From contig CAVRAY010000001.1 of the NCBI GenBank assembly GCA_963719225.1, forward strand, positions 1,856,001 through 1,920,000: 64,000 bases of DNA. Direction: 5' to 3'. Position 1 is the first letter of the stretch. The number at the start of each line of letters is the position of its first letter. A program made the translations under genes and the position numbers. Shown piece by piece: positions 2 through 56,655 of this stretch. The DNA is from Thermoanaerobaculia bacterium (GTDB lineage Bacteria; Acidobacteriota; Thermoanaerobaculia; UBA5066). The notes beneath the pieces are model-generated. The model saw only the letters and a program-made list of their open reading frames with translations. It was not told where the DNA came from and searched no databases.

Positions 2-376
2 GTGAAGAACCGCACGATGACCGCGAAGGAATGGAACGGCGAGGTCGTCTTCCTGCGCAAGGTCGCGGACGGCACGGCCGACCGCTCGTACGGCGTGCAG
101 GTGGCGCGCCTGGCGGGCATCCCGGAAGGCGTGCTCGCGCGGGCTCGCGAGATCCTCGGCAATCTCGAGCGGCAGCAGATGGACGTCGGCGGACGGCCGC
201 GCCTCGCCGAGCACGCGGGCGAGCCGCCGCCGCCGAACACGCAGCTCGACCTCTTCCGCGGGCAGGGCGAGCTCGTCCTCGACGCGCTCGGCCGCGTGGA
301 CGTGAACCAGCTCACCCCGCTCGCCGCGCTCCAGCTCCTCGCCTCCTTGCAGCATCGGTTGCGGGGAGAGGAATGA
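2..376 (+). CDS. mutS: DNA mismatch repair protein MutS, C-terminal fragment (gene starts before the window)
   Basis: [35 protein letters not shown] is the MutS C-terminal signature; QLDLF clamp-binding-like motif; terminal [13 protein letters not shown] helix. Confidence 0.95.
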
Positions 377-560
377 AGAGAAGAAAGAAAGTTTTGTTTC
401 GGAAAAGAGAAGAGAAGAAAGAATTGCTTAGAAGGTGAATAGGGCTTCGGATTCGCCGTCGCGGTTCGTGGTTGGTCTGAGCGGCCCCCAGCTCTCGGAT
501 TCGGAGCGCACATTGCTCGTTGCGCTTCGGCCGCTCGGCATCTTTCTTTCTAAGCAGAAT
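373..560. repeat. Dispersed purine-tract/CTTAGAA motif, convergent group 1
   Basis: Purine tract 373-423 then TTGCTTAGAAGGTGAAT (424-440, +); reverse copy TTTCTAAGCAGAAT at ~547-560. Confidence 0.8.
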
Positions 561-1511
561 CTCCAAACTCCCTCACAGAGTGCGTCGCTGCTGGAGGCGT
601 TGAGACGGTTGTATTTCCCCGCGCCCCTCCTCTTCATCTCCCAGGAAGGCGGGAGCGAGGATCCCATCGGGCCGCTTCTCGGAACCCCGTGCGCGTCGGC
701 CGCTGCGTGCGCGGCGGCGGGGACGGACCGCGTGCACGAGAACGCGTACCTCATGGGGCGCGCCGCGCGGCTCCTGGGCTTCGACGTGAATCTGGCTCCG
801 GTGCTGGACCTTGCGCAGCCGGGCACGGGCGCCGTCGTCCTCGAAGGACGTTGCTTCGGCTTTCACGCCGAGGACGTCGTGCTCTCGGGGATGATGTTCC
901 TGCACGGGCTCGCGCGCGCGGGCCTCGCGACCGCGGTGAAGCATTTTCCCGGGCTCGGCCGTGCGGGGATGGACACCCGTGTCGCGCGGCCCGCCGTGGA
1001 TGCCCACGACGTGGACCTCATGGTGACCGACGTCGCGCCCTTCACGAAGCTCGCACGGGGCGCGGACGCCGTCGTCGTGGGGCACGCGGCATACCCCGGC
1101 TTCACGGGTGATGACACCCCCGCGTCCCTTTCACCGAAGCTCCTTGGGATCCTGCGCGGTGCCGTCCGCTTCGAGGGCGTCTCGCTCGCGGACGACCTCG
1201 TGAAGGGCGCCCTCGAGGGGACGCTTCCGGAGCGTGCAGAGCGGGCCGCCCGGGCCGGCTGCGACGCGCTCATCGTCTCGACAGGCAGCGATGCGTGGGA
1301 AGAGTGTGCCGCGCGCGTCGCCGCCCTCGGCGAGGACCCCGCGCGCGACGCCCGCTTCGCGACTCTCCGCCGCCGTGTCGCGGACGCACCGCGTCCGCGG
1401 TTCGACGAAGAGGCGTGGAAGAAGCTGGCAGAGGAGGCCGCTGCCTTCAGTGAACTGCTCAGCAAGCCGAGAAAAAAGAGAGAAGAGAAGGATCTATTCG
1501 GATTTTCTTAG
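435..1511 (+). CDS. GH3 beta-N-acetylhexosaminidase (NagZ)-like protein with degenerate active-site motif
   Basis: QEGG, NLAPVLDL, KHFPGLG, GHAAYP, PASLS and DDL motifs of the GH3 N-terminal domain. Confidence 0.85.
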   Translation: MNRASDSPSRFVVGLSGPQLSDSERTLLVALRPLGIFLSKQNLQTPSQSASLLEALRRLYFPAPLLFISQEGGSEDPIGPLLGTPCASAAACAAAGTDRVHENAYLMGRAARLLGFDVNLAPVLDLAQPGTGAVVLEGRCFGFHAEDVVLSGMMFLHGLARAGLATAVKHFPGLGRAGMDTRVARPAVDAHDVDLMVTDVAPFTKLARGADAVVVGHAAYPGFTGDDTPASLSPKLLGILRGAVRFEGVSLADDLVKGALEGTLPERAERAARAGCDALIVSTGSDAWEECAARVAALGEDPARDARFATLRRRVADAPRPRFDEEAWKKLAEEAAAFSELLSKPRKKREEKDLFGFS

Positions 1512-1572
1512 AAAGGGGTTTTCCTCTTCACCTCCTAAGAAATCTTTTCTTAATCTTCTCTTTCTCTTCGTC
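1469..1572. repeat. Inverted pair of the CTTAGAA motif between convergent genes; probable bidirectional terminator
   Basis: GATTTTCTTAGAAAGGGG (1501-1518) and TTCACCTCCTAAGAAATC (1527-1544), with a purine tract on the left and a pyrimidine tract on the right. Confidence 0.75.
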
Positions 1573-1574
1573 TT

Positions 1575-2006
1575 CTAGAACGGCACGTCGTCGTCGGCAT
1601 CGCCGCCGCCCGCTGCGGCGTCCGGCACCGCCGGCGTCGAAGCGCCGGAGGTGCCGCCGGCATCGGGGCGGCCGCCCAGCATCTTCATGTCGCGCGCCTT
1701 GATCTCGGTGGCGTAGCGCTTCTGGCCGCTCTCCTTGTCGTCCCACGTGCGCGTCTGGAGCGCGCCTTCGATGTAGACGAGGCGGCCCTTCGACAGGTAC
1801 CGCTCGCAGATGCTCGCGAGCTTGTCGAACGCGATGACCGTGTGCCACTCGGTCTTCTCCTGCTTCTGTCCGCTCGCGCGGTCGTTCCACGTTTCCGTCG
1901 TGGCGATGCGCAGCCGCGCGATGGGCACTCCGCCAGTGGTGGCGCGCATTTCCGGGTCGGCCCCGAGGTGGCCGATGAGGATCACCTTGTTCACGGATCC
2001 AGCCAT
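1575..2006 (-). CDS. ssb: Single-stranded DNA-binding protein
   Basis: SVNKVILIGHLGADPE, TEWH, VYIEGALQTRTW, acidic DDDVPF tail. Confidence 0.97.
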   Translation of the reverse strand: MAGSVNKVILIGHLGADPEMRATTGGVPIARLRIATTETWNDRASGQKQEKTEWHTVIAFDKLASICERYLSKGRLVYIEGALQTRTWDDKESGQKRYATEIKARDMKMLGGRPDAGGTSGASTPAVPDAAAGGGDADDDVPF

Positions 2007-2046
2007 GTCCGTCCTCCGATCGTTCGGATCCTACAATCGGTCCGGT

Positions 2047-3609
2047 TTGAGCGAAACGCGGAAGCTGGTCCGGTCGGCCTGGGGCATCACCGCATGGACG
2101 GCGGTATCACGGGCGGCGGGCGTCCTGCGCGACGCGACGATCGCCCGCTTCCTCGGCGCGTCGGCCTTGTCGGACGCGTTCTACACGGCCTTCCGCATCC
2201 CGAACACGTTCCGGGCGATCGTGGGGGAGGGCGGCCTTCCGGGCGCCTTCGTGCCCATCGCGAAGAAAGTCGAGCGCGAGCGGCCGGGCGAGGAGGGCGT
2301 CTACGCAGGCCGCGTCCTGGCCCTGCTCCTCTGCGTCCTCGTCGCGCTCGTGGCTCTCGGGATCCTCTTTGCCGGCTCGATCGTCGCCCTCTTCGCGAAC
2401 GGCTTCAAGACGACGCCCGGGAAGTTCGAGCTGACCGTGCGCTTGACGCGCTGGATGTTCCCGTACGTCCTCCTCGTTTCCGCCGCGGCCCTCCTCGAGG
2501 CCTACCTGAACGCGAAGGGCTTCTTCCAGCTGTCGGCTGCCACCCCCATCGCCTGGAACCTCGCGATCGTCGCCGCCGCGTGGGCTCTCGCGCCCGCCGG
2601 CGTCTCGCCGCTCACGGCGCTCACGGTCGGCGTCCTCGTGGGCGGTTTTCTCCAGGTCGCTCTGCAGGGGCCCGCCGTGCGGCGGCTCGGCCTGCGCTTC
2701 TCGGGCTCGCCGTTCCGCGACAAGGAAGTGAAGCGGACGGCTCTTCAGATCGCCCCGCGCCTCTATGGCTACGGCGTCGGCCAGCTCTCGTTCCTCGTGT
2801 CGACCCGCACGCTCGCGGCGCTCGGAGACGCTTTCGTGACGTACAACTTCTGCGCGTGGCGCGTCACGGACTTCGTCCTCGGCGGATTCGTCGTCTCGAT
2901 CACGCGGGCGATCCTGCCGTCCCTCTCGGACCAGGCGCTCGAGTCGGACCGGACGGCCTACCGCGGCACGATCGCGTTTGCGCTGCGGCTCATCGGCTTC
3001 ATCACGATCCCCTCGACGGTGGGGCTCTGGCTCCTCGCGACGCCGCTCATCGACGTCGTCTTCCGCCGGGGCCGCTTCGGGGCGGCAGACGTGGACATGA
3101 CGGCCCTCGCGGTCGGCTTCTTCGCGCTCGGCCTCTTCGCGGCTGCGGGAGTGAAGGTGCTCACGCAGGCTTTCTACGCGCTCCACGACACCCGCACGCC
3201 GGTTTTCGTTGCCACGTTCGACCTCGCCGTGTTTTGGGCGCTCTGCGTCGCGCTCGCGGGCCCGATGCGCCACGCGGGGGTCGCGCTCGCGACGGCGGCG
3301 GGCTTCTGGATCAACTTCCTCGCGCTTCTGGCCCTCCTGAGGAAGCGGCTCGGGAGGCTCGGGGGGCGCGCGATCGGGACCGGACTCTTCCGGTTGGCGC
3401 TCGCGAGCCTCGGGATGGGGGCGATCGTGTGGGCGGTCTCGGAGAAGCTTCTGCCTTACCGGGTGGTCTGGGGCCTGCCGCTCCGGATCGGCTGGGTCGG
3501 TGCCGTCGCGGCGTTCGGTGCGGTGACGTTCGTCGCCTTCGCGAAGCTCCTCGGCGCGCCGGAAGTCGACGAGGTCCTGGGTGCATTCCGGAAGAAACAG
3601 GCAGCGTGA
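2047..3609 (+). CDS. murJ: Lipid II flippase MurJ (MviN)
   Basis: SRAAGVLRD, DAFYTAFRIPNTFR, GEG..AFVP, FYALHDTRTP; TTG start at 2047 chosen to avoid overlap with ssb. Confidence 0.93.
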   Translation: MSETRKLVRSAWGITAWTAVSRAAGVLRDATIARFLGASALSDAFYTAFRIPNTFRAIVGEGGLPGAFVPIAKKVERERPGEEGVYAGRVLALLLCVLVALVALGILFAGSIVALFANGFKTTPGKFELTVRLTRWMFPYVLLVSAAALLEAYLNAKGFFQLSAATPIAWNLAIVAAAWALAPAGVSPLTALTVGVLVGGFLQVALQGPAVRRLGLRFSGSPFRDKEVKRTALQIAPRLYGYGVGQLSFLVSTRTLAALGDAFVTYNFCAWRVTDFVLGGFVVSITRAILPSLSDQALESDRTAYRGTIAFALRLIGFITIPSTVGLWLLATPLIDVVFRRGRFGAADVDMTALAVGFFALGLFAAAGVKVLTQAFYALHDTRTPVFVATFDLAVFWALCVALAGPMRHAGVALATAAGFWINFLALLALLRKRLGRLGGRAIGTGLFRLALASLGMGAIVWAVSEKLLPYRVVWGLPLRIGWVGAVAAFGAVTFVAFAKLLGAPEVDEVLGAFRKKQAA

Positions 3610-11728: not shown

Positions 11729-13336
11729 TTGACGAAGCCCCGGCAGCTCGGCCGCGTGCTCGTCGCGAACCGCGGCGAGATCGCCGTGCGCGTGATCCGC
11801 GCCTGCCGGGCTGCGGGCCTGCCCGCGGTCGCGGTTTTCTCCGACGCGGATCGCGGCGCGCGCCACGTCGCGCTCGCGGATGCGGCGGTGCACGTCGGTC
11901 CCGCGCCCGCGCGGGAATCGTACCTTTCGATTCCGCGCCTCCTCGCCGCCGCCCGCGAGGCGGGCTGCGGCGCCGTGCATCCCGGCTACGGATTCCTCTC
12001 GGAGAACGCGGATTTCGGGCGTGCGGTCGAGGAGGCCGGGCTGATCTGGATCGGCCCGCCGCCCGCGGCGATGGAGGCGATGGGATCGAAGATTTCTGCG
12101 AGAGAAAGAATGAGGGCGGCTGGAGTTCCGGTGGTTCCGGGCGCGCTCATCGAGATGTTCGAAGAGAACGAAGAGAACGAAGAGAAAGAGAAGAAGAAGA
12201 TTTCTTTGAATGGTGAAGAGGCTGGGGACAGGGCCGGCGCGCGTCGAGCGGCGCCGCCGCGCCCCGCAACCTCTGGCACCCTCGAAGAAATCCCCTCTTC
12301 CGTTCTCTCCCTCGGTTTCCCGGTCGTCGTCAAAGCGTCCGCGGGAGGCGGCGGGAAGGGCATGCGTATCGTTCGCGACGCCTCTTCTCTTTCCGAAGCA
12401 ATATCTTCCTGCCGGCGCGAAGCGCTCGCCGCGTTCGGCGATGCGACGGTCTACGTGGAAAAGTACCTGCCTGCTCCCCGCCACATCGAAGTGCAGATCT
12501 TCGGCGACACGTTCGGGAACGTCGTCGCGCTCGGCGAGCGTGAGTGCTCGCTCCAGAGGCGGCACCAGAAGGTGATCGAGGAATGTCCGTCGCCGGCCGT
12601 GACGCCGGAGCTGCGCGCCCGCCTTCAGAAGGTCGCCTGCGACGCCGCGCGCGCGGTGGGCTATGTGAACGCGGGGACGGTCGAGTTCCTGCTCGAGCCC
12701 TCCGGCACGTTCTATTTCCTCGAGATGAACTCGCGCCTTCAGGTGGAGCATCCGGTCACGGAAGAGGCTTTCGGCGTGGACCTCGTGGCGTTGCAGCTAC
12801 GGATCGCGGCGGGCGAGAAGCTGCCCGAGCTTCCCTCCGCTCCCGCGGCGCATGCGATCGAGGCGCGCGTCTACGCGGAGGATCCCGACGCGGGATTCCT
12901 TCCGCAGGCGGGTCGTCTCCTGACCTGGATCGAGCCCTCGGGCCCGGGCGTGCGCGTGGACTCCGGCGTGGCGGCCGGCCAGCTGGTGGACATTCACTAC
13001 GACCCGCTCCTCGCCAAGATCGTCGCGAAGGGGAAGGACCGCGAAGAAGCGCGTACCCGGCTCGTCGCCGCGCTCCGCGAAACGGTCGCCCTCGGCGTGA
13101 CGACCAACCTCTCGTGGCTCGTGCGCCTGCTCGAGGCCGCTCCGGTCGTCCGCGGCGAGCTCCACACGGCCCTCGTCGAGTCGCTCGCGCTTCCCGCCCC
13201 CGGGCCTCCCCCGGACGAGGTCTTCGAGGTCGCTTCGGCGCTTCTCACGCGCGCCGCGCCCGAGGCGGGAGGACTCTCCGCGCGCCACGCGTTTCCGAGC
13301 CCGTTCGAAGAGCGGTTTCGGATGGGCGGCGCGTGA
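11729..13336 (+). CDS. Biotin carboxylase subunit of methylcrotonyl-CoA carboxylase, with low-complexity insertion
   Basis: VLVANRGEIA, HPGYGFLSEN, GGGGKGMR, ERECSLQRRHQK, EMNSRLQVEHPVTE; TTG start inferred. Confidence 0.92.
   Translation: MTKPRQLGRVLVANRGEIAVRVIRACRAAGLPAVAVFSDADRGARHVALADAAVHVGPAPARESYLSIPRLLAAAREAGCGAVHPGYGFLSENADFGRAVEEAGLIWIGPPPAAMEAMGSKISARERMRAAGVPVVPGALIEMFEENEENEEKEKKKISLNGEEAGDRAGARRAAPPRPATSGTLEEIPSSVLSLGFPVVVKASAGGGGKGMRIVRDASSLSEAISSCRREALAAFGDATVYVEKYLPAPRHIEVQIFGDTFGNVVALGERECSLQRRHQKVIEECPSPAVTPELRARLQKVACDAARAVGYVNAGTVEFLLEPSGTFYFLEMNSRLQVEHPVTEEAFGVDLVALQLRIAAGEKLPELPSAPAAHAIEARVYAEDPDAGFLPQAGRLLTWIEPSGPGVRVDSGVAAGQLVDIHYDPLLAKIVAKGKDREEARTRLVAALRETVALGVTTNLSWLVRLLEAAPVVRGELHTALVESLALPAPGPPPDEVFEVASALLTRAAPEAGGLSARHAFPSPFEERFRMGGA
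12150..12410. repeat. Motif group inside the biotin carboxylase gene
   Basis: (GAAGAGAAC)n tract then GATTTCTTTGAATGGTGAAGAG (12199-12220, +); reverse variants at ~12277-12310 and ~12383-12410. Confidence 0.7.
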
Positions 13337-15908: not shown

Positions 15909-18577
<2,669 letters not shown>

Positions 18578-19376: not shown

Positions 19377-20159
19377 GTGAGCGAAATCGAAGCGGCGGGC
19401 ACCCCGTCCCCGGCCGACTCCGGCCTCGACGAGGCGGGATACGCGACGAGGATCGAGGACGCGTTCATCGCCGAGCGCGGCACGCCGTTCCTCGTTTCGG
19501 CGAAAGACTGGAGTCTGATTCGCGGCTGGCGGGAAGCGGGGGTCCCCGTCGACACCGTCGTCCGGGCCGTGCGCGAGACCTTCGAAAAGCGCCGCGCGCG
19601 CGGCCAGGTCGGGAAGATCTCCTCGCTCGCCTACTGTGCGGACGCGGTCGCCGAACGGTGGGAGATGGAACGCCGCGGCCTCGTCGGCAAGGACGATCGG
19701 GCCCCCGCGGCCGCGGACGCGGCCGCGATCGGCGAAGAGCTCGCGAAGCTCGCCGCCGCGCTTCGCGCGACGGGAGAAGAGGGGAAGAAAGATTTGCTTC
19801 GGAAAGGGAGAGAGGGGGAACCGGGCGCTACGAGCGGTGGCGAAGCACCGGGATTCGATCTGGAAGTTCTTAGAAGGGGGTTGGATCGAGCGGCGGCCCA
19901 GATCGAGGAGGTCTCGGCTGATCTTCCCTTCGAAGAAATCGAGCACAAGCTTTCGTCTATCGAGTCCTCTCTCGTGCGAGCGGGTCTGAAAGCAATGAAT
20001 TCGTTTTCTAAGTCTCTGGTCGAGGCGCGCGTGAACGAGGCTTTGGGCAATGTCGCTGGCCTCGCGCCCCACGTCGTCGAGCGCATGCGCAAGGCGCTCA
20101 CGCGCCGCGAGGTGCGGTCCCTTGCCGGCTTCCCCCCGCTGACGCTCCTCCATGGCTGA
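19377..20159 (+). CDS. Hypothetical protein with weak DnaD-like helical motif
   Basis: In-operon ORF overlapping rlmD; SAKDWSLIRGW..GVP, ISSLAYC..AV. Confidence 0.7.
   Translation: MSEIEAAGTPSPADSGLDEAGYATRIEDAFIAERGTPFLVSAKDWSLIRGWREAGVPVDTVVRAVRETFEKRRARGQVGKISSLAYCADAVAERWEMERRGLVGKDDRAPAAADAAAIGEELAKLAAALRATGEEGKKDLLRKGREGEPGATSGGEAPGFDLEVLRRGLDRAAAQIEEVSADLPFEEIEHKLSSIESSLVRAGLKAMNSFSKSLVEARVNEALGNVAGLAPHVVERMRKALTRREVRSLAGFPPLTLLHG
19783..20016. repeat. Motif group (two + copies then two - copies) inside the hypothetical gene
   Basis: GATTTGCTTCGGAAAGGG 19791 (+), GTTCTTAGAAGGGG 19866 (+), CCCTTCGAAGAAATC 19926 (-), TTTTCTAAG 20004 (-). Confidence 0.7.
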
Positions 20160-21486
20160 GATCCGCCCCGGCGATCGCGTCGAGGTCGTGATCGAGCGCG
20201 TCGTGCCGGGCGGCGACGGGCTGGCGCGCCTCTCCGGCGTCGTGACCCTCGTGCCCGGAGCGTTGCCGGGCGACCGCGTGCGCCTTCGGGTGGGCGCTGC
20301 CTCGGATCGTCTCGTGCGCGGCGACCTGGAAGAGGTGCTCGTGTCCGGTGAGGCGCGCCGGCCGGGAGTCGAGATGTGCCCGAGGGCCCTCGACGGCTCC
20401 TGCGGCGGGTGCGACTGGCCGGCCGCGCGCCTCGAGTCTCACCGGGAGCTCAAGACGGCGCTCGTCCTCGATGCGCTCCGGCGGCTTGCGGGACTCCTGC
20501 CGGAAGATCTCCCCGAGCCGCGCTGGCTCGGGTCCCCGCGAAACTACCGCCTCAGAAACCGGCTTCATCTCGATCGCCGGGGAAACCTGGGATTCTTCGC
20601 GTCGCGCTCGAACGCCGTCTCGAACCTCGAGACGTGCGAGATCGTCTCGAACGCGCTGCTCGCGCGACTGCCCGCGATCCGCGATCACGTGCGCGGATTC
20701 GGACCGATGGAAGGGGAGCTCTGGACGCTGGAAGACCGCTCGGGGGGCACGCTGCTCGCCGAGTTGCGCCTCGGCGCGGGTGAGGGTCTGCAAATTTCTT
20801 CGAAGGTGAAGGAGAGGGGGAGGGGGCCGTTCGACGGGTTTCGACTCCTCGATGCGAGCGGCCGGGTGCTTCTTTCCGACGGACCCTCGTCTCTGGCGAT
20901 CGCGGCGGGCGGAGCCTCGTTCGACGTCTCCGTCTCCTCTTTCTTTCAAGGAAATCTGTATCTTCTCGACGCTTTTCTCGAAGAGATTCGGACCGCGCTC
21001 CGCGCGGTGCGGCCTTTTCGCGCGGTCGACCTCTATGCGGGCGCGGGATTCCTCACGCGGCCCCTTCTGGAGCTCGCGCGCGAGGTAGGTGGGGGCGATG
21101 TGACGGCCGTCGAGATCGACCCTTCCGCGTCACATTCCCTTTCTAAGAATCTTCAAACATGGCATTCGCACGGCTATCCCCTCGCGCGCTTCGTGCTCGC
21201 CTCGGCCGAATCTTTCTTTCATTCGCAGAAAAATCCGAATTCTCCGATCGATTTGATCGTCGCCGACCCGCCGCGCGCAGGCATGTCACCGAGCGTGCGG
21301 AGCGGGATCCTGCGCCTCGCACCGCGGCATCTCCTGATGGTCTCGTGCGATCCGCCGACGCTCGCCCGAGATCTGTCGGTCCTGAAGGAGCGTTACGCCG
21401 TCGAGCGCTTGACGCTGCTCGATCTCTTCCCGCAGACGCACCACGTCGAAACGGTCGCCTTGCTCGAACGGCGCGAAGTCGGATAG
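20152..21486 (+). CDS. rlmD: 23S rRNA m5U methyltransferase, RlmD/TrmA family with TRAM domain
   Basis: C..CGGC Fe-S motif, SFFQGN, DLYAGAG, DPPRAG, VSCDP, DLFPQTHHVE. Confidence 0.88.
   Translation: MAEIRPGDRVEVVIERVVPGGDGLARLSGVVTLVPGALPGDRVRLRVGAASDRLVRGDLEEVLVSGEARRPGVEMCPRALDGSCGGCDWPAARLESHRELKTALVLDALRRLAGLLPEDLPEPRWLGSPRNYRLRNRLHLDRRGNLGFFASRSNAVSNLETCEIVSNALLARLPAIRDHVRGFGPMEGELWTLEDRSGGTLLAELRLGAGEGLQISSKVKERGRGPFDGFRLLDASGRVLLSDGPSSLAIAAGGASFDVSVSSFFQGNLYLLDAFLEEIRTALRAVRPFRAVDLYAGAGFLTRPLLELAREVGGGDVTAVEIDPSASHSLSKNLQTWHSHGYPLARFVLASAESFFHSQKNPNSPIDLIVADPPRAGMSPSVRSGILRLAPRHLLMVSCDPPTLARDLSVLKERYAVERLTLLDLFPQTHHVETVALLERREVG
20792..21245. repeat. Motif group inside rlmD
   Basis: AATTTCTTCGAAGGTGAAG 20793 (+); CCCTTTCTAAGAATCTTC 21137 (-); weaker reverse variants at ~20941 and ~21215. 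Confidence 0.68.
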
Positions 21487-27994: not shown

Positions 27995-28038
27995 AGAGGA
28001 GAAGAGAGAAGAAAAAAAGATTTCTTAGAAGGTGAATA
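27995..28038 (+). repeat. Consensus-like copy of the dispersed motif
   Basis: AGAGGAGAAGAGAGAAGAAAAAAA-GATTTCTTAGAAGGTGAATA. Confidence 0.8.
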
Positions 28039-28075
28039 TTCAGCGTCGCAAGGGCACTTCCCTCTGGGGCGATCA

Positions 28076-48685: not shown

Positions 48686-48722
48686 GATCCCGTTTTACCA
48701 TTGCCGCGTGGTGCGGCGTCCC

Positions 48723-50969
48723 ATGGCCCTGTTCGGGCTGGTCGCGGCGGCGAGTCTCGCGGCGGCCTGCGGGGGCACGCGCCCCATGCCCGCGCTGGAG
48801 GACTACTCGCACGGAACTTCCGCCTTCGTGACCGAGTTGGGAAGGGAGTTTCAGGTCGGAAGAAGACCAGGAGAAGATTTCTTAGAAGGGGAAAGAGAAA
48901 GAGAGGATTTCTTAGAAGGTAATAGGGGAAAAGGCGCTGGTGCGATGGAGTCGCCGGCGGCAGCGCCCCTCAGGGAGTTTCAGTCGCGCTGGCGTTCCAC
49001 GTGCCATTTCCGCTGTGCTTCGGCGGTCCGCATCGTCGACCTTCAGAAGAAATCCTCTTCGGACCTGACTCTGCGCATTGAAGTCCGCCTCCAGGGCTTC
49101 GCCCGCGCGGAGGATCCGGAGCGCGTCGCGGCCTTGGGTGTCTTCGATCTCTCCCTCTTTCGCAGGGAAACCTCCGAATCCTCCTCGAAGACCCGCTGGC
49201 AGTTGCGTTCCGCTTCCGCCGTCGGCGCGTCCGAGATCCAGCGCGGCCATCCCCATCTCTTCGAGGAAGCCGCCGCGCGCGGTCTCGTCGCTCCGCACGA
49301 GCCCCTCGATCCCGTGGAGTCGACGAACCTTTGCCTCCCCGCGACGCACCACCACCCGGGAGTTCTGCTCGTGGACGTCGACGCGGACGGCGCCGTGGAC
49401 GTCGTCGTTCCGAACCGCCACCCGCGGCTTTTCCTGAACGACGGCTCCGGGCATTTCCTCGACGCGACCGCCGGCTCCGGCCTCGACCTCCTGCCCGAGA
49501 TGGAAGCGTCCGGGGGCGTCGCCGCCGACGTGGACGGGGACGGGCTGCCGGACCTCTTCCTCTCGAATCACATATCGCCGTGCCGGCTCCTGAAGAATCT
49601 CGGGCACGGGAGGTTCCGCGACGTCACCCAGGAGTGGGGCCTGGCGGGCCTCTCCGGGCCGTTCACGTCGGCCGTGTTCTTCGACGCCGACCGCGACGCC
49701 CGCGTCGATCTCTTCGTCGCGAGCTACGGAGACGCGCGCGCCACCGGCCCGGCCTATGACGGCCTGAACGGCACGGGCGACCGCTTCTTCCGGAACGTGG
49801 AGCGGAACGGGCACCCGTTCTTCGTGGACGAGACGGCGGCCTCCGGACTGCGGGACGTGGGCTGGGGCTTCGCCGCCGAGGCCTGCGACGCGGACGACGA
49901 CGGCGACGACGACCTCTACGTCGCGAACGATTTCGGGATGAACGGGTTCTTCGAGAACCGCTCCACGCCCGGCCACCCGCACTTCGTCAACATCGCCCGG
50001 ACGAATGGCACGAAGGACGAGGGATATGGAATGGGCGTCGCCTGGGGGGATTACGACGGAGACGGCCGCTGGGACCTGCACGTCTCGGATTACTGGACGC
50101 CCTATCGCTGGATCCTGAACGACTCCCGTTGGCCCATGCCGCCGCTCCCGGGCGCGGGCCTCGTGCGGGGACACATGGCGAAGATCATGAAGCGGCGTTC
50201 GGGGGGCGACGCGCTCTTTCGCAATCTCGGTGGCCTGAAGTTCGCGCGCACGTCGGAGGCAGCCGGCGTCGCGGACGGAGGCTGGGCCTGGGGCACGGAG
50301 TTCGTGGACCTCGACGGGAAAGGCCGCGAGGATCTCCTCGTCGTGAACGGCATGTTCCGGGCGACGACGGGCGTCGACGACGAGATCTCGTTCTGGAACG
50401 CGATGGGGCGGGAAGGCGTGAACTTCCACGACGGGATCTGGGGAGCCATCGACTTCGGCGTCAACGGCATGGCGTCACGGACGCCGAAGAAGCTCTTCTG
50501 GAATCGCGGCGACGGCACCTTCGAGGAGCGGGCGTTCGTGGAAGGGTTCGACACGCTCGAGGACACGCGCGGCCTCGCATATGCCGACCTCGACGGCGAC
50601 GGCGCGCCGGAGATCGTCGTCTCGTGCTTCCGCGGCCCCCTGCACGTCTATCGCAACGAATGGGGCAGCGGCGCCGGACGTGTCGTCGTCCGGCTCTCGG
50701 CCGACAAGGGCACGAACCGCGACGCTCTCGGCGCCGTCGTGCGCCTCACGGCCAACGGCAAGCTCCAGCTTCGCGAGGTGCGCGCGGGCTCGTCTTATCT
50801 CTCGCAGTCGTCGCACGATCTCCTCTTCGGCCTCGGCGGCGCGAAAGCGGCGGACCTCGAGGTCCGCTGGCCGGATGGGAGGAAGGACACGCTGCGCGAT
50901 GTTCCGGCCGGCACACTCGTGACGCTGGTCGAGGGAAGAAAAGAGAAGAGAGACTTGCTTAGAAAGTGA
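48723..50969 (+). CDS. CRTAC1-family FG-GAP/ASPIC-UnbV lipoprotein
   Basis: Repeated DxDGDGxxDL, LAAAC lipobox, GSSYLSQS..FGLG C-terminal domain; start 48708 or 48723. Confidence 0.88.
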   Translation: MALFGLVAAASLAAACGGTRPMPALEDYSHGTSAFVTELGREFQVGRRPGEDFLEGEREREDFLEGNRGKGAGAMESPAAAPLREFQSRWRSTCHFRCASAVRIVDLQKKSSSDLTLRIEVRLQGFARAEDPERVAALGVFDLSLFRRETSESSSKTRWQLRSASAVGASEIQRGHPHLFEEAAARGLVAPHEPLDPVESTNLCLPATHHHPGVLLVDVDADGAVDVVVPNRHPRLFLNDGSGHFLDATAGSGLDLLPEMEASGGVAADVDGDGLPDLFLSNHISPCRLLKNLGHGRFRDVTQEWGLAGLSGPFTSAVFFDADRDARVDLFVASYGDARATGPAYDGLNGTGDRFFRNVERNGHPFFVDETAASGLRDVGWGFAAEACDADDDGDDDLYVANDFGMNGFFENRSTPGHPHFVNIARTNGTKDEGYGMGVAWGDYDGDGRWDLHVSDYWTPYRWILNDSRWPMPPLPGAGLVRGHMAKIMKRRSGGDALFRNLGGLKFARTSEAAGVADGGWAWGTEFVDLDGKGREDLLVVNGMFRATTGVDDEISFWNAMGREGVNFHDGIWGAIDFGVNGMASRTPKKLFWNRGDGTFEERAFVEGFDTLEDTRGLAYADLDGDGAPEIVVSCFRGPLHVYRNEWGSGAGRVVVRLSADKGTNRDALGAVVRLTANGKLQLREVRAGSSYLSQSSHDLLFGLGGAKAADLEVRWPDGRKDTLRDVPAGTLVTLVEGRKEKRDLLRK
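48871..49060. repeat. Two tandem motif copies at 30-bp spacing plus a reverse variant
   Basis: GAGAAGATTTCTTAGAAGGGGAA (48871) and GAGAGGATTTCTTAGAAGGTAAT (48901); CCTTCAGAAGAAATCCTCTTC at ~49040 (-). Confidence 0.8.
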
Positions 50970-51155
50970 ATGCGGAAAGACAAGAGCATATGCGGCAATA
51001 TCCATTCGATGAGCCGGCTTTTCTTTGTCCTCTTCTTCAATTCCCTTTCTAAGAAACCGTCTCTCTTCGAGCGTAGCGGTTGGGCCGCCCTTGCAATTCT
51101 GGTGGCAGCCGTCGCCTTGCCCTATTCCTCTTCAGCAGAAAATCCCTCTTCTCCC
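50931..51155. repeat. Convergent motif group at the gene junction
   Basis: GACTTGCTTAGAAAGTGAAT 50952 (+); TTCCCTTTCTAAGAAACC 51041 (-); weaker reverse variant at ~51130. Confidence 0.75.
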
Positions 51156-54100
51156 CGGTTCTCTCCCGAGCAGGCTTCGCGGATCCTGACGCTGCGAAAC
51201 GTGGGCCTCGCGCAACTCGAAGAAGACCGCCCGAAGGAGGCTCGCACGACGTTCGCGAAGCTCGCGGAGCTGCTGCCGGGCGAGCCGCTGCCGCTCGCGA
51301 ACGCCGCGATCGCAGCGTTGCGCGAGAAGGATCTGCCGGGAGCGGAGGCGATCCTCGGCAAGGCGCTCGCGCTGGGAGATCGGGCGGACCTTCAGGCCAT
51401 TCGCGCGCTTCTCGAAAACGAGCGAAACCGGCCCCCGGCCGCCCGGGCCGCTTTCGAGAGGGCCGCGTCTCTCGACCCGCACGACCTGGAGTCGCGCTGG
51501 CGCTTCGCGCGAAGCGTCGAGACGGACCCGTCCGCGTCGGCGGCCGACAAGGCCGCGCGCCGCGCGCGCCTCGCGGAGATCGTCGCGCGCTCGCCCTCGA
51601 ATCTGCCCGCGCGCCTGAAGCTCCTCCTCCTCGAGGGCGAGTCGAACGATGCGGCCGCGCTCTCGAAGGGCCTCGCGGAGCTGGATCCGCTCATCTCGGA
51701 CGGCGATGCCCGCCTGCGCCATTTTCTCGCGGAAGCCCGAACGCTCCTTGCCGGGGGCGACGTCAAGGGTGCCACGGTCAAAGTCCGCGTCCTCGAGAAC
51801 CTCCTCAGAGTCACGCCGCGCTACCAGCAGTCGCTCGGCGAGGTGTTCACGCAGGTCGTGGGGCTGCCCGTCGAGAAATTCTCCTCGAAGGTGGAGGAGG
51901 GATTGCGCACCGGCGCGGGTGCGGCGATTCCCGTGACGTTCCGCGCTCCGGCGGCGTCCGAGGAGAACGTGGAGAAGATTCTTCGAAAAGTGGATCTGAA
52001 GAACACGGGCGCGGCCGAGGCGTATTCCGTACCCGCCCCGTTCACCGCCGCTGTCTTCATCGATTTCGACCTCGACGGCGACCTCGACGTCTACCACTTC
52101 GGCGCGGGCAGGGCCGATCAGCTCCTCCGCAACAACCTCGATGGCACGTTCGCGGACGTGACGGCGAAAACCGGCGACGCGAAGCTCACCTCGAGAAAAG
52201 TCGTCCTCTCCGATGTGGATCGCGACGGCGATCCGGACCTCGTGGCGATCGACGCAAAAGGCGAGGTGGTCATTCGGCTGAATCTCCGCCAGGGCGTCTT
52301 CCGGAACGTCCCGCTCGGGGTGAATGGGGCGACGGATGTCGCGGTCGAGGACCTGAACGGAGATGGAATTCCCGACATCGTGGTGGCCACCTCCCACGGG
52401 CTGCGGCTGCTGTTGGGAAAGGGAGACGGGAGTTTCTTAGAAGGCGCGGGGAGCGGGCTCGATGCGGCGGGCGGCTCGGCCGCGATGCGGGCGGTGGTGC
52501 TTGGGGATTTCGACAACGACGGTTTTCCGGACGTCGTGGTGGCCTCTTCGGACGGCCTGCGCGCGTATCGCAACGTCGGGGGCGGCAAGTTCACGGACTG
52601 GCCGATCTTCTCTTCCCCTTCTAAGAAGTCTTCTTCCTCGTTCTCTTCGAACCTCTCGAACATCGAGGCGCTTCTCGCGTACGACGCGGACAAGGACGGG
52701 GATCTCGACCTCCTCGTCTCGGCCGGCGGGAAGACCACGGTCCTCGTCAACGACGGCGGAAATGCGAACGGCTGGCTCGACGTCGTGCTCGAAGGGCTGC
52801 AGACGGGATCGGGCAAGGTGAACAAGCACGGCGTCGGAAGCCTCGTCGAGGTGAAGGCGGGGAGCCTGTACGTCGCACGCACGGCGGGACTGGGGCCGAC
52901 GCATTTCGGTCTCGGGCGGCGCACGAAGGCGGACGTCGTGAGGGCGACGTGGACGAACGGCGTGCCGCAGAACCTCTTCGACCAGAAATCGAAGACCGTC
53001 GTGAAGGAGGTCCAGCAGCTCAAAGGTTCGTGTCCGTTCGTGTATGCGTTGAACGGCGAGGCCCGGGTCTGGAGCTTCGTCTCCGACGCGCTCGGCCGCT
53101 CGCCCATCGGGCTCCTCTACGACGGCGTCCACCTCGCGGGCGCCGACACGCGTGAATGGCTCTTCATCGACGGGGACACGCTGCGGCCCGACGCGCACCG
53201 CCGCCTCCTCCTCGACTACACCGAGGAGCTCTGGGAAGTCGCGTACCTCGACGAGGCGACGCTCGTGGCCGTCGATCATCCCGGGGGGACGGGCGTCGTC
53301 CCGAACGAGCGAACGATCCCGGGCGTGATGGAGAAGAAGGTCTTCACCGTGGCACGCCCGCGGCCACTGCGCTCCGCTTTCTCGGACGCCTCCGGCCGCT
53401 CCGAAGACGTGACCGGCCGGCTCGCGCGGCGCGACCGGGTCTACGTGAGCCCGGGGCCCGAGATGTTCTATCAGGGCGTGAGACAGGAGCACTCTCTCGT
53501 CCTCGATCTCGGCGACGTGAAGGGCGGCGATCGCGTCGTCCTCTACCTCTCCGGCTGGATCTTCTACACGGACACGTCCATCAACGTCTCGATCTCGCAG
53601 CGCGGGGACCTTCGACACTTTCCGCCGCTTCTCGAGGTTCCGGACGGAAACGGCGGATGGAAGATCGCGATGGAGTCGTTCGGCTTCCCGGCGGGCAAGA
53701 CGAAGACGATGCCCGTCGATCTCACGGGGCTCGTCGATCCGAAGGACCCGCGCGTGCGAATTCGCACCACCATGGCGATCTTCTGGGACGAGGCCTTCGT
53801 CACGGTGAACGACCCGGCGGTCGATGTGGTGACGACTTCGCTCGCGCCGTCCTCGGCTTCTCTCTCGGAGCGCGGCTTTCCGCGCGGGTATCGCGAGACT
53901 CCGGACGGACCCGAGGTGTTCGACCACGGCGACGTCTCGACCGCGCCGCGCTGGGAGGACATGCCCGGCCGCGTCACGCGCCTCGGCGACGTCACGGAGC
54001 TGCTCGCGAAGACGGACGACCGCTGGGTCGCGTTCAAGGGAGGCGACGCGATTCGCATCGCGTACGACGCCTCGAAGCTGCCGCCTCTCGCGCCGGGCTG

Positions 54101-54314
54101 GCGACGCGACTGGATCCTCGTCTCCGACGGCTGGGACAAGGACTTCGACAAGAACACGGTCACGGGCCAGTCCTACGAGCCATGGCCCTTCCATGCGATG
54201 TCGGCATACCCCTACCCGCCCTCCGAGCACCATCCCGATCCGAAGTTCCTCGAGGAGACGCTCACGCGAAAGGTCGGGCCCGAGCGATTCCGAAACGCGC
54301 TGGGGGAAAGATAA
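50970..54314 (+). CDS. TPR + FG-GAP + ASPIC/UnbV protein with additional C-terminal domain
   Basis: TPR helices, DFDLDGDLD repeats, HFGLG, GSCPFVY, GWDKDFDKNT; true start may be downstream (51009). Confidence 0.88.
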   Translation: MRKDKSICGNIHSMSRLFFVLFFNSLSKKPSLFERSGWAALAILVAAVALPYSSSAENPSSPRFSPEQASRILTLRNVGLAQLEEDRPKEARTTFAKLAELLPGEPLPLANAAIAALREKDLPGAEAILGKALALGDRADLQAIRALLENERNRPPAARAAFERAASLDPHDLESRWRFARSVETDPSASAADKAARRARLAEIVARSPSNLPARLKLLLLEGESNDAAALSKGLAELDPLISDGDARLRHFLAEARTLLAGGDVKGATVKVRVLENLLRVTPRYQQSLGEVFTQVVGLPVEKFSSKVEEGLRTGAGAAIPVTFRAPAASEENVEKILRKVDLKNTGAAEAYSVPAPFTAAVFIDFDLDGDLDVYHFGAGRADQLLRNNLDGTFADVTAKTGDAKLTSRKVVLSDVDRDGDPDLVAIDAKGEVVIRLNLRQGVFRNVPLGVNGATDVAVEDLNGDGIPDIVVATSHGLRLLLGKGDGSFLEGAGSGLDAAGGSAAMRAVVLGDFDNDGFPDVVVASSDGLRAYRNVGGGKFTDWPIFSSPSKKSSSSFSSNLSNIEALLAYDADKDGDLDLLVSAGGKTTVLVNDGGNANGWLDVVLEGLQTGSGKVNKHGVGSLVEVKAGSLYVARTAGLGPTHFGLGRRTKADVVRATWTNGVPQNLFDQKSKTVVKEVQQLKGSCPFVYALNGEARVWSFVSDALGRSPIGLLYDGVHLAGADTREWLFIDGDTLRPDAHRRLLLDYTEELWEVAYLDEATLVAVDHPGGTGVVPNERTIPGVMEKKVFTVARPRPLRSAFSDASGRSEDVTGRLARRDRVYVSPGPEMFYQGVRQEHSLVLDLGDVKGGDRVVLYLSGWIFYTDTSINVSISQRGDLRHFPPLLEVPDGNGGWKIAMESFGFPAGKTKTMPVDLTGLVDPKDPRVRIRTTMAIFWDEAFVTVNDPAVDVVTTSLAPSSASLSERGFPRGYRETPDGPEVFDHGDVSTAPRWEDMPGRVTRLGDVTELLAKTDDRWVAFKGGDAIRIAYDASKLPPLAPGWRRDWILVSDGWDKDFDKNTVTGQSYEPWPFHAMSAYPYPPSEHHPDPKFLEETLTRKVGPERFRNALGER
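52416..52665. repeat. Convergent motif pair inside the TPR/FG-GAP gene
   Basis: GAGTTTCTTAGAAGG 52430 (+); TCTTCCCCTTCTAAGAAGTCTTCTTCCTCGTTCTCTTCGAAC 52611-52652 (-). Confidence 0.78.
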
Positions 54315-54375
54315 TTTTGCTCGCTCGTGAACCGGGCCGACTGCGACGACCTACAGTGGGGCTGGTGTAAGGGTG

Positions 54376-54485
54376 TTTTTTCTTAGAAGGGTGAATTCTC
54401 TGACAGCAGCCGCACTCGCAGCGCTTCTCCTGTCGCCGCGCCCCTCTTACCCATTCGAAGGATCTTCTTCTTCTTCTTCCTCTTT
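54376..54485. repeat. Convergent motif pair at the start of the third CRTAC1 gene
   Basis: TTTTCTTAGAAGGGTGAAT 54378 (+); CCATTCGAAGGATC(TTC)n 54451 (-). Confidence 0.7.
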
Positions 54486-56133
54486 GACTCCTCCCATCCG
54501 CTTCACCGACGTGACCAAGCGAGCGGGACTGAACTTCAGGTTCGAGACCGACCTCCGCCGCGGGCGGAACCTGGCGACCATGGGCGGGGGCGTGGCGATG
54601 GGGGACTTCGACGGCGACGGTTTCGCCGACCTCTTCTTCACGGGCTCCGTCGCGAACGGCAAGAAGCCCGACGCGGGTCCGTGCGGCGTCCTCTACCGCA
54701 ACCGCGGCGACGGCACGTTCGAGGACGTCACGGCTCGTTCGGGAATCCGGTCGTGCGGCTGGACGATGGGCGCCTCGTGGGTCGACCTCGACGGCTCGGG
54801 GCTCCCGGACCTGATCGTCACGGGAGTCGGAAAGACGTCACTTTTCAAGAACCTCGGGAACGGGACGTTTCGCGAGGAAGGCGCGGTCCGCGGACTCGTC
54901 GCGCCGGGCTACTCCGTGGGCCTCGCGGCTGGCGACGTCGACGGGGACGGCCGCGTCGACCTCTACGTCGTCGGGTACCTCGACACGGATTACAGGAAGG
55001 AACAGTCCTTTCCGGCGCTCCAGGTGCGGATGCCGGAAGACTACGAAGGGCAGCCGGCGACTTTGCTCGTGCAGGATGCCGGGGGTCGTTTCCACGGGCG
55101 CTCGAAACCGGCGGGCGTGACGAACGCGGGGGGGCGCGGGCTGGGAGCGGTGTTCTTCGACTACGACGGCGACGGCCGGCCGGACCTCTACGTCGCGAAC
55201 GACCGGTCGACGAACGTCCTCTACCGCAACCGTGGCGACGGCACGTTCGAGGACGTGACGGTCGAGACCGGCGGGGGCGCACGCGACCAGAAGATTCCCC
55301 GCGCGGGCATGGGAATCGCGGTCGGCGACGTGGACGGAGACGGGCTGCCGGACGTTCTCGTCACGAATTTCTCCGGGGAGCCGAACACGCTCTATCGAAA
55401 CGTGGACGGGATTCTCTTCGACGACGCGACCGAGACTTTTGGCGTGGATCGCGCCTCTTTTCCATACGTGGAATGGGGGACCGACTTCGCGGACCTCGAC
55501 GACGACGGCCGGATGGATCTCGTGGCGGCGTCGGGCCACCTCGTGCCGCGCATTCTCCTCACGTTCGCGAAGTTCTTCCGGAAGAACGGCCTCGGAGTGT
55601 ACGGGCTCGGTGACCACTCCTACGCGCAGCCGCCGCTCGTCTGGCGCAACGACGGGCACGGCCGCCTCGCCGACGTCACGCTCCAATCGGGCGACTGGGC
55701 AGCCCTGCGCCTCTCGGCGCGCGGGCTCGCGGTAGGCGACGTGGACGGCGACGGGCGGCTCGACGTCGCGATCGCCGCGATCGCCGGCGGGATCCGCCTC
55801 ATGAAGAACTCCACGGGGTCACCCGGGCACGCGCTCGAGATCCTGCCGGTCGCGGGAGCGGACCGCCGGACCGTTCTCGGGACGAGGGTCGTCGTGACCG
55901 CGGGCGCTCTCCGCCAGGTGCAGGAGTTCATCCTGCGGCCCTCGTACGCATCCGGGGCGTGGATGCCGCTGCACTTCGGGCTCGGCGCGGCGACCGCGGC
56001 TACGGTGGAAGTCGTCCCGCCCGGAAAGACGGCTCCCGCCTCGCGCTTCGAGGCCGTGGCCGCCGACCGTCTCTACACCCTGCGCGACGGGAAGCTCGAG
56101 GAGAAGAGGGGATTCAGGCTCCAGCGGCCGTGA
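54391..56133 (+). CDS. CRTAC1-family FG-GAP/ASPIC-UnbV protein
   Basis: FTDVT..AGL, DFDGDG repeats, LYRNRGDGTFEDVT twice, LHFGLG; start 54373 or 54391. Confidence 0.9.
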   Translation: MNSLTAAALAALLLSPRPSYPFEGSSSSSSSLTPPIRFTDVTKRAGLNFRFETDLRRGRNLATMGGGVAMGDFDGDGFADLFFTGSVANGKKPDAGPCGVLYRNRGDGTFEDVTARSGIRSCGWTMGASWVDLDGSGLPDLIVTGVGKTSLFKNLGNGTFREEGAVRGLVAPGYSVGLAAGDVDGDGRVDLYVVGYLDTDYRKEQSFPALQVRMPEDYEGQPATLLVQDAGGRFHGRSKPAGVTNAGGRGLGAVFFDYDGDGRPDLYVANDRSTNVLYRNRGDGTFEDVTVETGGGARDQKIPRAGMGIAVGDVDGDGLPDVLVTNFSGEPNTLYRNVDGILFDDATETFGVDRASFPYVEWGTDFADLDDDGRMDLVAASGHLVPRILLTFAKFFRKNGLGVYGLGDHSYAQPPLVWRNDGHGRLADVTLQSGDWAALRLSARGLAVGDVDGDGRLDVAIAAIAGGIRLMKNSTGSPGHALEILPVAGADRRTVLGTRVVVTAGALRQVQEFILRPSYASGAWMPLHFGLGAATAATVEVVPPGKTAPASRFEAVAADRLYTLRDGKLEEKRGFRLQRP

Positions 56134-56152
56134 GCATTCCGTCCTCCTCGCT

Positions 56153-56521
56153 TCAAAGCATGAACTGCCGGATGGAGCCGCAGACGGAGAGCAACTGAGG
56201 CCGATCCATGCGCCCGACGACGTTGCGGATGACGGATCCCATCATCTGCTGCACACCGGCGAGGCCGATCTTCGCCGACTGCTGCACGATGAAGCCCGCC
56301 TTGGCGACCTCGAGCGGCTTCATGAAGTAAGCGTCCATGCCGCTGTTCGTCAACTTAACGACGACGTCCGCCAGGGCGGCGCGGTGAGCGGTCGCATCCG
56401 GAGCCTGCTCGAGAGTGATGAGCACCGAGAGCGCTTCCTTCTGAAGGGGGACCGGGTAGTGAAAACGAAGGGACGGCTTCGACGACGGGCCGGGTGATTT
56501 CGAGGACGCGAGGATCTTCAT
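56153..56521 (-). CDS. Hypothetical protein
   Basis: Only plausible ORF in the interval; normal composition. Confidence 0.55.
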   Translation of the reverse strand: MKILASSKSPGPSSKPSLRFHYPVPLQKEALSVLITLEQAPDATAHRAALADVVVKLTNSGMDAYFMKPLEVAKAGFIVQQSAKIGLAGVQQMMGSVIRNVVGRMDRPQLLSVCGSIRQFML

Positions 56522-56545
56522 GAGCCTGCGAGTTTGGCAGGGATA

Positions 56546-56655
56546 CGGAAGAGGCGAAGAGATTTCTTAGAGGGGAAGAGGGGCACGCCGCTCCTGTGTT
56601 TGCGGTGTCGAAACCCTGCGGAACACCTTCCGTATTCACCATCTAAGAAAACACC
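56546..56655. repeat. Intergenic convergent motif pair enclosing a hairpin
   Basis: GATTTCTTAGAGGGGAAG 56561 (+); ATTCACCATCTAAGAAAA 56634 (-); internal GTGTTTGCGG..CTGCGGAACAC. Confidence 0.78.

Follow-up and report, generated by a model that had tools for sequence, protein, structure and literature searches.

Convergent pairs of a dispersed DNA motif in genes and spacers of two Thermoanaerobaculia genera: putative recognition sites of a clade-specific protein

Introduction

What keeps a short, asymmetric, AT-rich motif in place in both the genes and the spacers of a GC-rich bacterial chromosome? The question is raised by a 64,000-nt stretch of a Thermoanaerobaculia genome, referred to here as the window (C1:1856001-1920000 of genome G000, which consists of two contigs, C1 and C2, of 3.88 and 0.87 Mb at 67.7% GC). 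The GC content of the window is 64-74%, and scattered through it are copies of one motif, which we call arms. A first-pass annotation had proposed that the constraint on this motif lies on the DNA and not on the protein, and had offered three candidate explanations: a DNA uptake sequence, a nucleoid or segregation protein site, and a domesticated coding repeat. None of the three was confirmed in the present analysis. The constraint does act at the DNA level, in all reading frames and in spacers, and we tentatively favor the reading that arms are putative paired recognition sites for a clade-specific DNA-binding protein. The convergent pairing of arms, their confinement to two genera and the variation of their density along the chromosome had been missed in the first-pass annotation.

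Motif and enrichment

In aligned copies, an A/G-rich stretch at positions -25 to -5 leads into (A/T)TTTCTTAGAAGG and then (T/G)GAA..GGG, in agreement with the earlier description of an A/G tract ahead of the core. A full arm consists of the outer A/G tract, ATTTCTTAGAAGG and (T/G)GAAGAGG, or, in short form, [A/G tract]-ATTTCTTAGAAGG-TGAAGAGG. With up to two mismatches allowed, the 14-mer GATTTCTTAGAAGG matches the window 16 times against 0.06 expected, a number reached in none of 100 shuffles. Genome-wide, 207 of the 442 CTTAGA hexamers fall within CTTAGAAGG.

The first-pass annotation had named enrichment over a codon-preserving null as a way to check its proposal, and this enrichment is present. 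In called genes, TTCTTHGAAGG occurs 200 times, compared with 12.6±4.1 (maximum 20) in 20 synonymous-codon shuffles that preserve every protein and the codon usage of each gene. The enrichment of arms is therefore not a by-product of protein sequence or codon usage. Scored with an iterated 26-nt matrix built from the genome, and with a cut-off of at least 18 bits, G000 contains 802 arms, compared with 91 in the reversed genome. An order-3 de novo k-mer search recovered the arm motif both in G000 and in a related genome, G003.

Called genes hold 569 of the 802 arms, and all six reading frames are occupied (60, 86 and 116 in the sense of the gene; 132, 40 and 98 antisense). In the two frames that would read TAG or TAA, none of the 86 and none of the 132 arms retains TTAGA; CTTCGA stands in its place in 44 and 90 of them, and CTTTGA in 18 and 19. 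The base changed is A3 in at least 78 of the 86 and at least 124 of the 132, though other single changes would also remove the stop. CTTAGA is kept in 134 of 233 spacer arms. These frame counts confirm the earlier observations that all frames are used and that the stop-forming base is replaced. Together with the codon-aware null, the use of six frames with one permissive base supports placing the constraint on the DNA, as do the conservation of the core above its flanks and a copy decayed to GC in a motif-poor relative, both described below. Genic arms are evenly spread along the length of genes, with no preference for either end, and spacer units show no preference among 5'-5', 3'-3' and tandem spacers.

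Pairing of arms

Among neighboring arms within 400 nt of each other, 260 pairs are convergent (+ then -), 13 divergent and 82 tandem. Of the 282 remaining arms, 109 have a partner scoring 10 bits or more in the convergent place, compared with 7 in the divergent (mirror) place. Taken together, these counts indicate that nearly all true arms are members of pairs in which the cores point inward and the tracts lie on the outside. The core-to-core distance shows a sharp onset near 72 nt, a mode at 75-90 nt and a tail to about 250 nt, with an overall span of 32 to about 370 nt, and neither helical (10.5 nt) nor codon (3 nt) periodicity was found in the spacing.

The fillers between the cores are GC-rich (mean GC 0.69-0.71) and fold like control segments (z about 0). 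Fillers of at least 25 nt among the 260 pairs are mutually unrelated; the exceptions are paralogous genes (kinases and others), two unlinked units related to each other, and a few matches of 15-21 nt. Some fillers consist of native, conserved gene sequence. Arms of the same unit resemble each other no differently from shuffled partners (core identity 0.740 vs 0.735; tract 0.325 vs 0.315), and no covariation or compensatory change was found between the arms of one unit. Of five units of the window folded as RNA, two show pairing between their arms (z -5.05 and -2.06) and three do not (z 0.01, -0.61 and -0.13). The functional unit is two independent inward-facing sites, and not a stem, a peptide or a mobile body of fixed length.

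Units in the window

The arms and units of the window are as follows.

373..575, convergent pair, distance 127 nt: left core 427 (35.7 bits), its A/G tract beginning at about 373; right core 554 (20.8 bits)
1470..1578, convergent pair, filler nearly absent: cores 1507 and 1539 (23.0 and 31.2 bits), RNA fold z 0.01
12088..12113, + strand, weaker outer arm within the biotin carboxylase gene (22.5 bits)
12150..12320, convergent pair within the biotin carboxylase gene: cores 12204 and 12287 (32.7 and 19.5 bits), distance 83 nt
12381..12406, - strand, weak outer arm in the biotin carboxylase gene (18.2 bits)
18287..18312, + strand, arm without a scored partner (26.9 bits)
19789..19943, three arms in open reading frame (ORF) 19377-20159: 19797 (+), 19869 (+) and 19935 (-), 19.3, 21.0 and 19.9 bits
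20790..20959, convergent pair within the TRAM/methyltransferase gene 20152-21486: 20798 (+) and 20951 (-), 33.3 and 24.6 bits, distance 153 nt
21130..21236, - strand, two arms: 21147 and 21228 (29.1 and 26.6 bits)
27996..28041, + strand, arm with a perfect 14-mer and an A/G tract, without a scored partner (34.1 bits)
48850..48936, + strand, tandem arms 48881 and 48911 (38.1 and 35.0 bits), 30 nt apart and each containing the perfect 14-mer
50925..51075, convergent pair: cores 50958 and 51053 (26.5 and 28.1 bits), distance 95 nt, RNA fold z -2.06
51875..52006, + strand, two arms within an FG-GAP gene: 51883 and 51981 (24.4 and 17.0 bits)
52428..52633, convergent pair within an FG-GAP gene: cores 52436 and 52625 (21.6 and 33.0 bits), distance 189 nt
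54374..54490, convergent pair: cores 54382 and 54460 (22.2 and 23.3 bits), distance 78 nt, RNA fold z -0.61
56545..56655, convergent pair in a divergent spacer: cores 56566 and 56647 (29.8 and 24.9 bits), distance 81 nt, RNA fold z -0.13

All ten forward CTTAGA positions reported in the first-pass annotation are exact (427, 1507, 19869, 28024, 48881, 48911, 50958, 52436, 54382 and 56566). Its reverse TCTAAG cores are exact at six positions (549, 20007, 21142, 51048, 52620 and 56642), while the seventh, at 1534, reads CCTAAG within a 31-bit arm. Nine of its ten variants score at least 12 bits (12204, 12287, 12398, 18295, 19797, 19935, 20798, 51981 and 54460). The tenth, placed at 49045, has no scoring match there; the nearest lies at 49165 (12.3 bits) and is a possible weak partner of the tandem arms 48881 and 48911, which lie upstream of an FG-GAP gene.

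Several units meet genes at their borders. The GH3 ORF (435-1511) starts at a GTG (435) within the left arm at 427 and ends at the TAG of the next core itself (1509-1511). The unit at 1470..1578 fills the gap between the convergent GH3 and ssb genes, and ssb (minus strand, 1575-2006, C-terminus ..DDDVPF) stops at 1575 in the pyrimidine tract of this unit. In place of ssb, our gene caller put an over-long MurJ ORF (1810-3609), whose MurJ Pfam match begins at residue 111. Further along, the TGA of arm 50958 is the stop of the gene at 48945-50969, and its partner at 51053 lies in the 5' part of the next gene. Five species have the pair at 54374..54490, whose arms lie on either side of the start codon and signal peptide of an FG-GAP/ASPIC gene; arm 54382 carries the GTG that opens this ORF (start 54391), and the filler encodes the signal peptide. 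The arm at 27996..28041 sits in the spacer before the end of a convergent TPP-enzyme gene. Between a small glutaredoxin-like ORF and this solo arm (core 28024) lies a GC-rich, non-coding gap of 270 nt (27743-28015) with no Rfam match. ORF 19377-20159, which holds three arms, has no Pfam match.

Arms create stop codons, Shine-Dalgarno-like sites and GTG starts at gene borders, as well as low-complexity protein stretches rich in E/K/R or S/P/L. Gene callers and domain annotation can be expected to be misled by them in these genomes.

Orthologous sites

Between G000 and G003, about 221 kb were aligned at 86% overall identity (0.696 at four-fold sites), and of the 87 arms that this region contains, 56 could be aligned. 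The core is 0.839 identical, the tract 0.74 and the filler, which evolves at the four-fold-site rate, 0.695; flanks stand at 0.79, compared with 0.86 overall. Within the core, C0, G4, A5 and G8 are identical in 0.93-0.98 of cases and A3 in 0.71. Of the pair in the divergent spacer at 56545..56655, G003 retains the right arm only.

Arms are also kept at orthologous places across the window's genus (g1) and a sister genus (g8), and arms overlie native codons with no change in length. In the GH3 enzyme, the right arm at 554 overlies the native codons of ..GIFLSKQN.. (..IFLSKQN.. in the comparison), with length unchanged. The left arm at 52436 is the native FG-GAP sequence ..GSFLEG.., in which TTA corresponds to CTG or CGA in three relatives, again at unchanged length, and its partner at 52625 (..PSKKSSSS..) is kept in all four species aligned. 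In 16 kinase paralogs, arms flank helix C on both sides without altering the length. In G000, at least eight Ser/Thr kinase paralogs standing in tandem about 2.6 kb apart at C1:2.295-2.32 Mb, together with dispersed ones, all have an arm pair exactly 97 nt apart around this helix. Five g8 genomes have arms on either side of a 180-nt segment of alanine racemase, and G000 shares the right one at the same position. Also in g8, 22 native bases at a stop-to-ATG junction lie between two arms; G076 is without both, and the copy in G075 has decayed from AT to GC.

Other loci show insertion. The unit at 12150..12320 is translated in frame within biotin carboxylase (..EENEENEEKEKKKISLNGEE..TLEEIPSS..); compared with same-genus orthologues, its left arm and filler are an insertion, and its right arm overlies native sequence. 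In eight species, this segment measures 108, 117, 117, 135, 219, 234, 240 and 244 nt and carries 0, 1 or 2 arms, with two abutting arms in one arrangement and tandem arms in another; the 244-nt form breaks the frame. This comparison took 8 of the 11 orthologue loci, leaving out G003, G009 and G005, of which G003 was covered in the later alignment. In G008 (L007), biotin carboxylase is broken into two frames precisely where the repeat unit lies (244 nt, +1); either the gene is a pseudogene there or the assembly is wrong in a low-complexity tract. In RNase R, the native DFLEG is the left arm, and filler and right arm are inserted in two g8 species.

Distribution among genomes

The exact 11-mer core is present in 51-240 copies in each of the 16 other genomes of the window's genus. 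Its copies number 31 in one sister-genus genome, G046, and there is a single one in another, G026. In the other 42 genomes taken from the order there are 0-2 copies, and reversed-pattern controls give 0-7 across all genomes, in a tally that includes the unpublished genomes G013 and G018, on which nothing else here depends. With the middle base left free, the core occurs 126-348 times per genome in g1 (11 of 11), besides 288 times in G000, 12-80 times per genome in g8 (8 of 8), and 0-11 times in 21 genomes of eight other genera. The arm family is confined to two genera, being abundant in g1, weaker in g8 and at background level in the eight others. An order-3 k-mer search for a different 'dialect' of the signal, covering 400 kb each of G044 (genus g10) and G016 (family f3), yielded nothing comparable.

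Chromosome-scale distribution

GC skew places the origin of C1 near position 0 and the terminus near 2.10 Mb. Arm densities in G000 are as follows.

C1, 0-0.8 Mb: about 85 arms per Mb
C1, 0.8-3.1 Mb: about 250 arms per Mb
C1, 3.1-3.88 Mb: about 113 arms per Mb
C2: 80 arms per Mb

The three C1 regions hold 16, 126 and 20 exact cores, respectively. Arms are about threefold rarer around dnaA and on the second replicon. An origin in codon quality was rejected for this bias, the per-gene codon score being equal across regions. The dnaA gene of G003, at C4:346 kb, lies in an interval without any exact core (23.8-441.2 kb), for which the genome mean predicts about 9.6. All 17 C1 copies in G046 fall within 0.1-1.2 of 2.18 Mb. 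The strands are balanced on each replichore (183/185 and 190/174), so that the mapping of orientation against replichore suggested in the first-pass annotation reveals no strand skew.

A 97-kb stretch of G003 (C6:500001-597000, L104-L108) has a GC content of 0.648 (genome about 0.684) and 0 arms, compared with 52 in the adjacent 303 kb. Its matches to G000 reach only 65-74%, and it is probably acquired DNA.

Two further observations concern the arm-poor parts of G000. The second contig of 0.87 Mb, whose arm density is less than half that of C1, looks like a chromid and not a dispensable plasmid, because it carries DprA (C2:306055-306669) and a ComEA-like gene (C2:230533-230718). At C1:0.05-0.45 Mb, the k-mer search returned a T/G-rich, low-complexity tandem stretch (TGTTTATGT, TTGTGATGT, 8-13 copies).

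A proposed clade-specific reader of paired sites

In the reading that we tentatively favor, a dimeric or tetrameric protein limited to the two genera would read the near-palindromic core TTCT-N-AGAA, take direction from its flanks, and bridge or wrap the 70-250 bp between two sites. Selection, or drive linked to recognition, would keep arms in place, and new units would form by the completion of near-matches, such as native FLEG or FEE codons, and also by rare arm-guided copying of whole units. Candidate roles are chromosome architecture, recombination or uptake, among which we lean towards a role at the level of the chromosome. It is possible, if doubtful, that the arms constitute a system for marking or organizing the chromosome, in which a protein found only in this clade would read about 400 two-site, inward-facing marks per genome with the origin region spared. 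We are equally hesitant about the further proposal that such a marking system, written and kept even within essential enzymes, would be distinct from uptake sequences, repetitive extragenic palindromes (REPs), MITEs (miniature transposable elements with inverted repeats) and known nucleoid-protein sites.

Two known kinds of chromosomal signal come near to this picture. matS is bound by a protein that bridges two sites and is confined to one chromosome domain, in about two dozen copies; HIP1 of cyanobacteria, a short palindromic 8-mer, is over-represented in genes and spacers through substitution. Arms share the over-representation in genes and spacers with HIP1 and the domain bias with matS, their uneven distribution with respect to origin and terminus being not fully symmetric in G000, but they differ from both in pairing and tract: we know of no pairing rule for HIP1, no convergent close pairs for matS and no A/G tract for either. 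Of the first-pass candidates, the nucleoid or segregation site accommodates both the pairing and the uneven regional density, but no candidate for its protein was found.

Several observations weigh against a protein-read signal. The reader protein, its binding and its function are all things that we infer. Conservation of the core is only moderate (0.84), and 31 of the 87 arms considered could not be aligned with G003. Gain and loss also proceed in blocks, of whole units as well as of single arms: biotin carboxylase and RNase R contain insertions of 100-130 nt, a 128-nt unit that G000 and G011 have at a 3'-3' junction is missing from G003, one 39-nt arm is an indel, arms are duplicated in tandem, and a copy of one unit, filler included, lies at an unlinked locus (about 88% identity). 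Intergenic DNA is about threefold enriched in arms. The regional bias is asymmetric in G000, where 3.70-3.88 Mb is dense again, and the terminus-side enrichment tells against such a signal, since tolerated selfish DNA shows the same. A last point is the crudeness of our own gene calls, which missed, for example, ssb at 1575-2006.

If arms are read by a protein, they would represent a rare, long, high-information DNA signal imposed genome-wide on coding sequence, and a comparison of the arm with a T2/G4 mutant oligonucleotide would offer a direct handle on the reader. It would also become testable whether bacteria beyond Neisseriaceae and Pasteurellaceae mark 'self' DNA or structure their chromosomes in this way. 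Arm density may flag foreign DNA. The strict two-site geometry is not known from any described bacterial repeat. The first-pass annotation did not recognize the motif as a described element, and within the searches made this holds: it has no Rfam match, and literature searches on motif strings and topic, with supplements outside their scope, gave no description.

Selfish repeats as an alternative

The block gains and losses raise the alternative that units are old, non-autonomous selfish repeats similar to MITEs, Rickettsia palindromic elements (RPEs) or REPINs, which would insert whole, be tolerated and slowly decay, the arms being their terminal inverted repeats. Presence and absence between species, the whole 128-nt unit as an indel, the copy at an unlinked locus, tandem arm duplication, a copy number that varies from 51 to 240 exact cores, and the intergenic and terminus-side enrichment are all as expected of such elements. 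So are the in-frame insertions in biotin carboxylase (from 108 to 244 nt in eight species) and RNase R: RPEs and intragenic REPs are palindromic repeats that can be translated in frame (PMC10969869, PMC3733652). We nonetheless regard this alternative as unlikely. Fillers have no common sequence or size, and some are native, conserved gene sequence. Arms that overlie native codons leave length unchanged, stop avoidance changes always the same base, and arms persist at orthologous sites in two genera while their fillers drift at the four-fold-site rate. No target-site duplication was evident at two indels, whose ends are low-complexity tracts with uncertain boundaries.

Like RPEs, units are palindrome-like DNA lying in frame in unrelated housekeeping genes and translated there (PMC10969869), as found for biotin carboxylase and, in g8, RNase R. 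RPEs are described as about 150 bp of conserved sequence encoding a conserved peptide (PMC10969869), but in our units only the arms are shared, six frames are used, native enzyme sequence may be flanked, and no full-length consensus with a conserved peptide is found. The coding-repeat candidate of the first-pass annotation holds for the in-frame insertions and fails on the arbitrary or native filler and on conservation in place. MITEs such as the Correia element share with our units inverted ends, small size, presence or absence between relatives and the occasional disruption or extension of genes (PMC10969869). The units have inverted arms but unrelated fillers, without a conserved body or length, and without a parent insertion sequence (IS) that has matching ends.

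A parent IS was sought in G000 and rejected, the ends of five repeat or IS types differing from arms; they include a 1337-bp IS, IS1482, a 1038-bp IS and IS110-like repeats. A match to a known IS end, one of the outcomes that the first-pass annotation had said would count against its proposal, was thus not found among the IS elements of G000. The ends of IS1482 contain CTTAGAAGTG, but the IS carrying it is sporadic, with the transposase in 3 of 11 g1 and 2 of 8 g8 genomes and absent from G003, G048 and G046. The 1337-bp IS has about 10 near-identical copies (C1:766247-767583 and nine other places). A 1.48-kb IS is present in three copies (C1:522200-523680 and two others), has ends with repeated TAGAAGTGTCCCC, and encodes a transposase for which only HTH Pfam domains were matched.

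Arms also resemble REPs, bacterial interspersed mosaic elements (BIMEs) and REPINs as dispersed short repeats that often form inverted doublets, and some REP families also lie within genes (PMC3733652). They differ in that the arm is no hairpin itself, no compensatory change is found, the spacer is arbitrary and most copies are genic. A link to REP-associated tyrosine transposases (RAYTs) was rejected: Y1_Tnp (PF01797) has 0 matches in G000 and was found in 1 of 11 other g1 genomes. Y1_Tnp/RAYT genes are present in nearly all other genera of the family, and the RAYT loci of G046 are without the arm motif.

Uptake sequences as an alternative

A second alternative is an analogue of a DNA uptake sequence (DUS) or uptake signal sequence (USS), in which arm-bearing DNA would be taken up preferentially and recombination would write the arm into the chromosome by molecular drive. 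Known uptake sequences work singly, and USS and DUS have a density of 1 per 1-2 kb. In G000, by contrast, at least about 80% of arms are convergently paired at spacings from about 72 nt upward, so that the single copy is not the functional unit by our pairing counts, and no uptake model is known to need pairing. Arm density is about 1 per 6 kb, below the range for USS and DUS, and its roughly threefold drop around dnaA is unexplained by uptake drive. These points make uptake quite improbable in our view, and they are also where the corresponding first-pass candidate, many features of which do fit, falls short.

Arms are a clade-specific signal in hundreds of copies with balanced strands, and they are written over native codons without change in length and with no need for a transposase. 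DUS and USS are likewise short, oriented motifs in hundreds of copies, restricted to one clade and balanced between strands (PMC2397512, PMC2817400, PMC2346458), written without a transposase into genes in several frames at permissive places, better conserved than their flanks and missing from atypical DNA. The share of arms in called genes (71%, compared with about 90% coding) resembles that of USS, given as 47-70% in genes against 84-89% coding (PMC2346458), and of uptake sequences with 65%, 49% and 34.5% within ORFs (PMC2817400). The core is conserved in permissive flanks, and the low-GC 97-kb stretch of G003 has 0 arms, just as DUS are described as conserved within permissive surroundings and absent from acquired genes (PMC2397512). 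Predicted ComEC, DprA, a ComEA-like gene and two secretins are present in G000, but the competence genes found are common in non-competent bacteria, and controls match in 6-11 of 14 genomes. Arms differ from DUS and USS in the obligatory convergent pair at least about 72 nt apart, the outer A/G tract, the regionally biased density, and the insertion or loss of blocks of 40-130 nt.

RNA-level and phage readings

It is highly improbable that the arms pair in the transcript as a terminator, an RNase III site or a long-range stem hiding a ribosome-binding site. In favor of such pairing, the consensus sequences of the two arms are complementary, the left arm looks like a Shine-Dalgarno sequence with GTG and sometimes carries the start (window 435 and 54391), some units fill 3'-3' gaps and arms pair in two of the five folded units, but covariation is absent, three of the five show no arm pairing, 177 of the 260 pairs lie within called genes, evenly spread, without a 3' or 5' spacer preference, none of the 9 terminator-like matches found at 44000-58000 (8.5 expected) falls within a unit, and an Rfam search of the window returned one tRNA only and no arm match. 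Gene context, fold z, the lack of covariation and the terminator scan led us to reject an intrinsic terminator or RNA hairpin as a general reading. A phage link was rejected as well, the 16-mer matches in viral contigs all being single copies, as by chance.

In three relatives, a second repeat is inserted beside arms. It is a GC-rich, REP-like hairpin with a stem of about 15 nt (GCGGCGGCTGC / GCAGCCGCCGC) and AT-rich tips, and is found at L097/L098 (G005, orthologous to the window at about 50975) and at L160 and L162 (G026 and G077).

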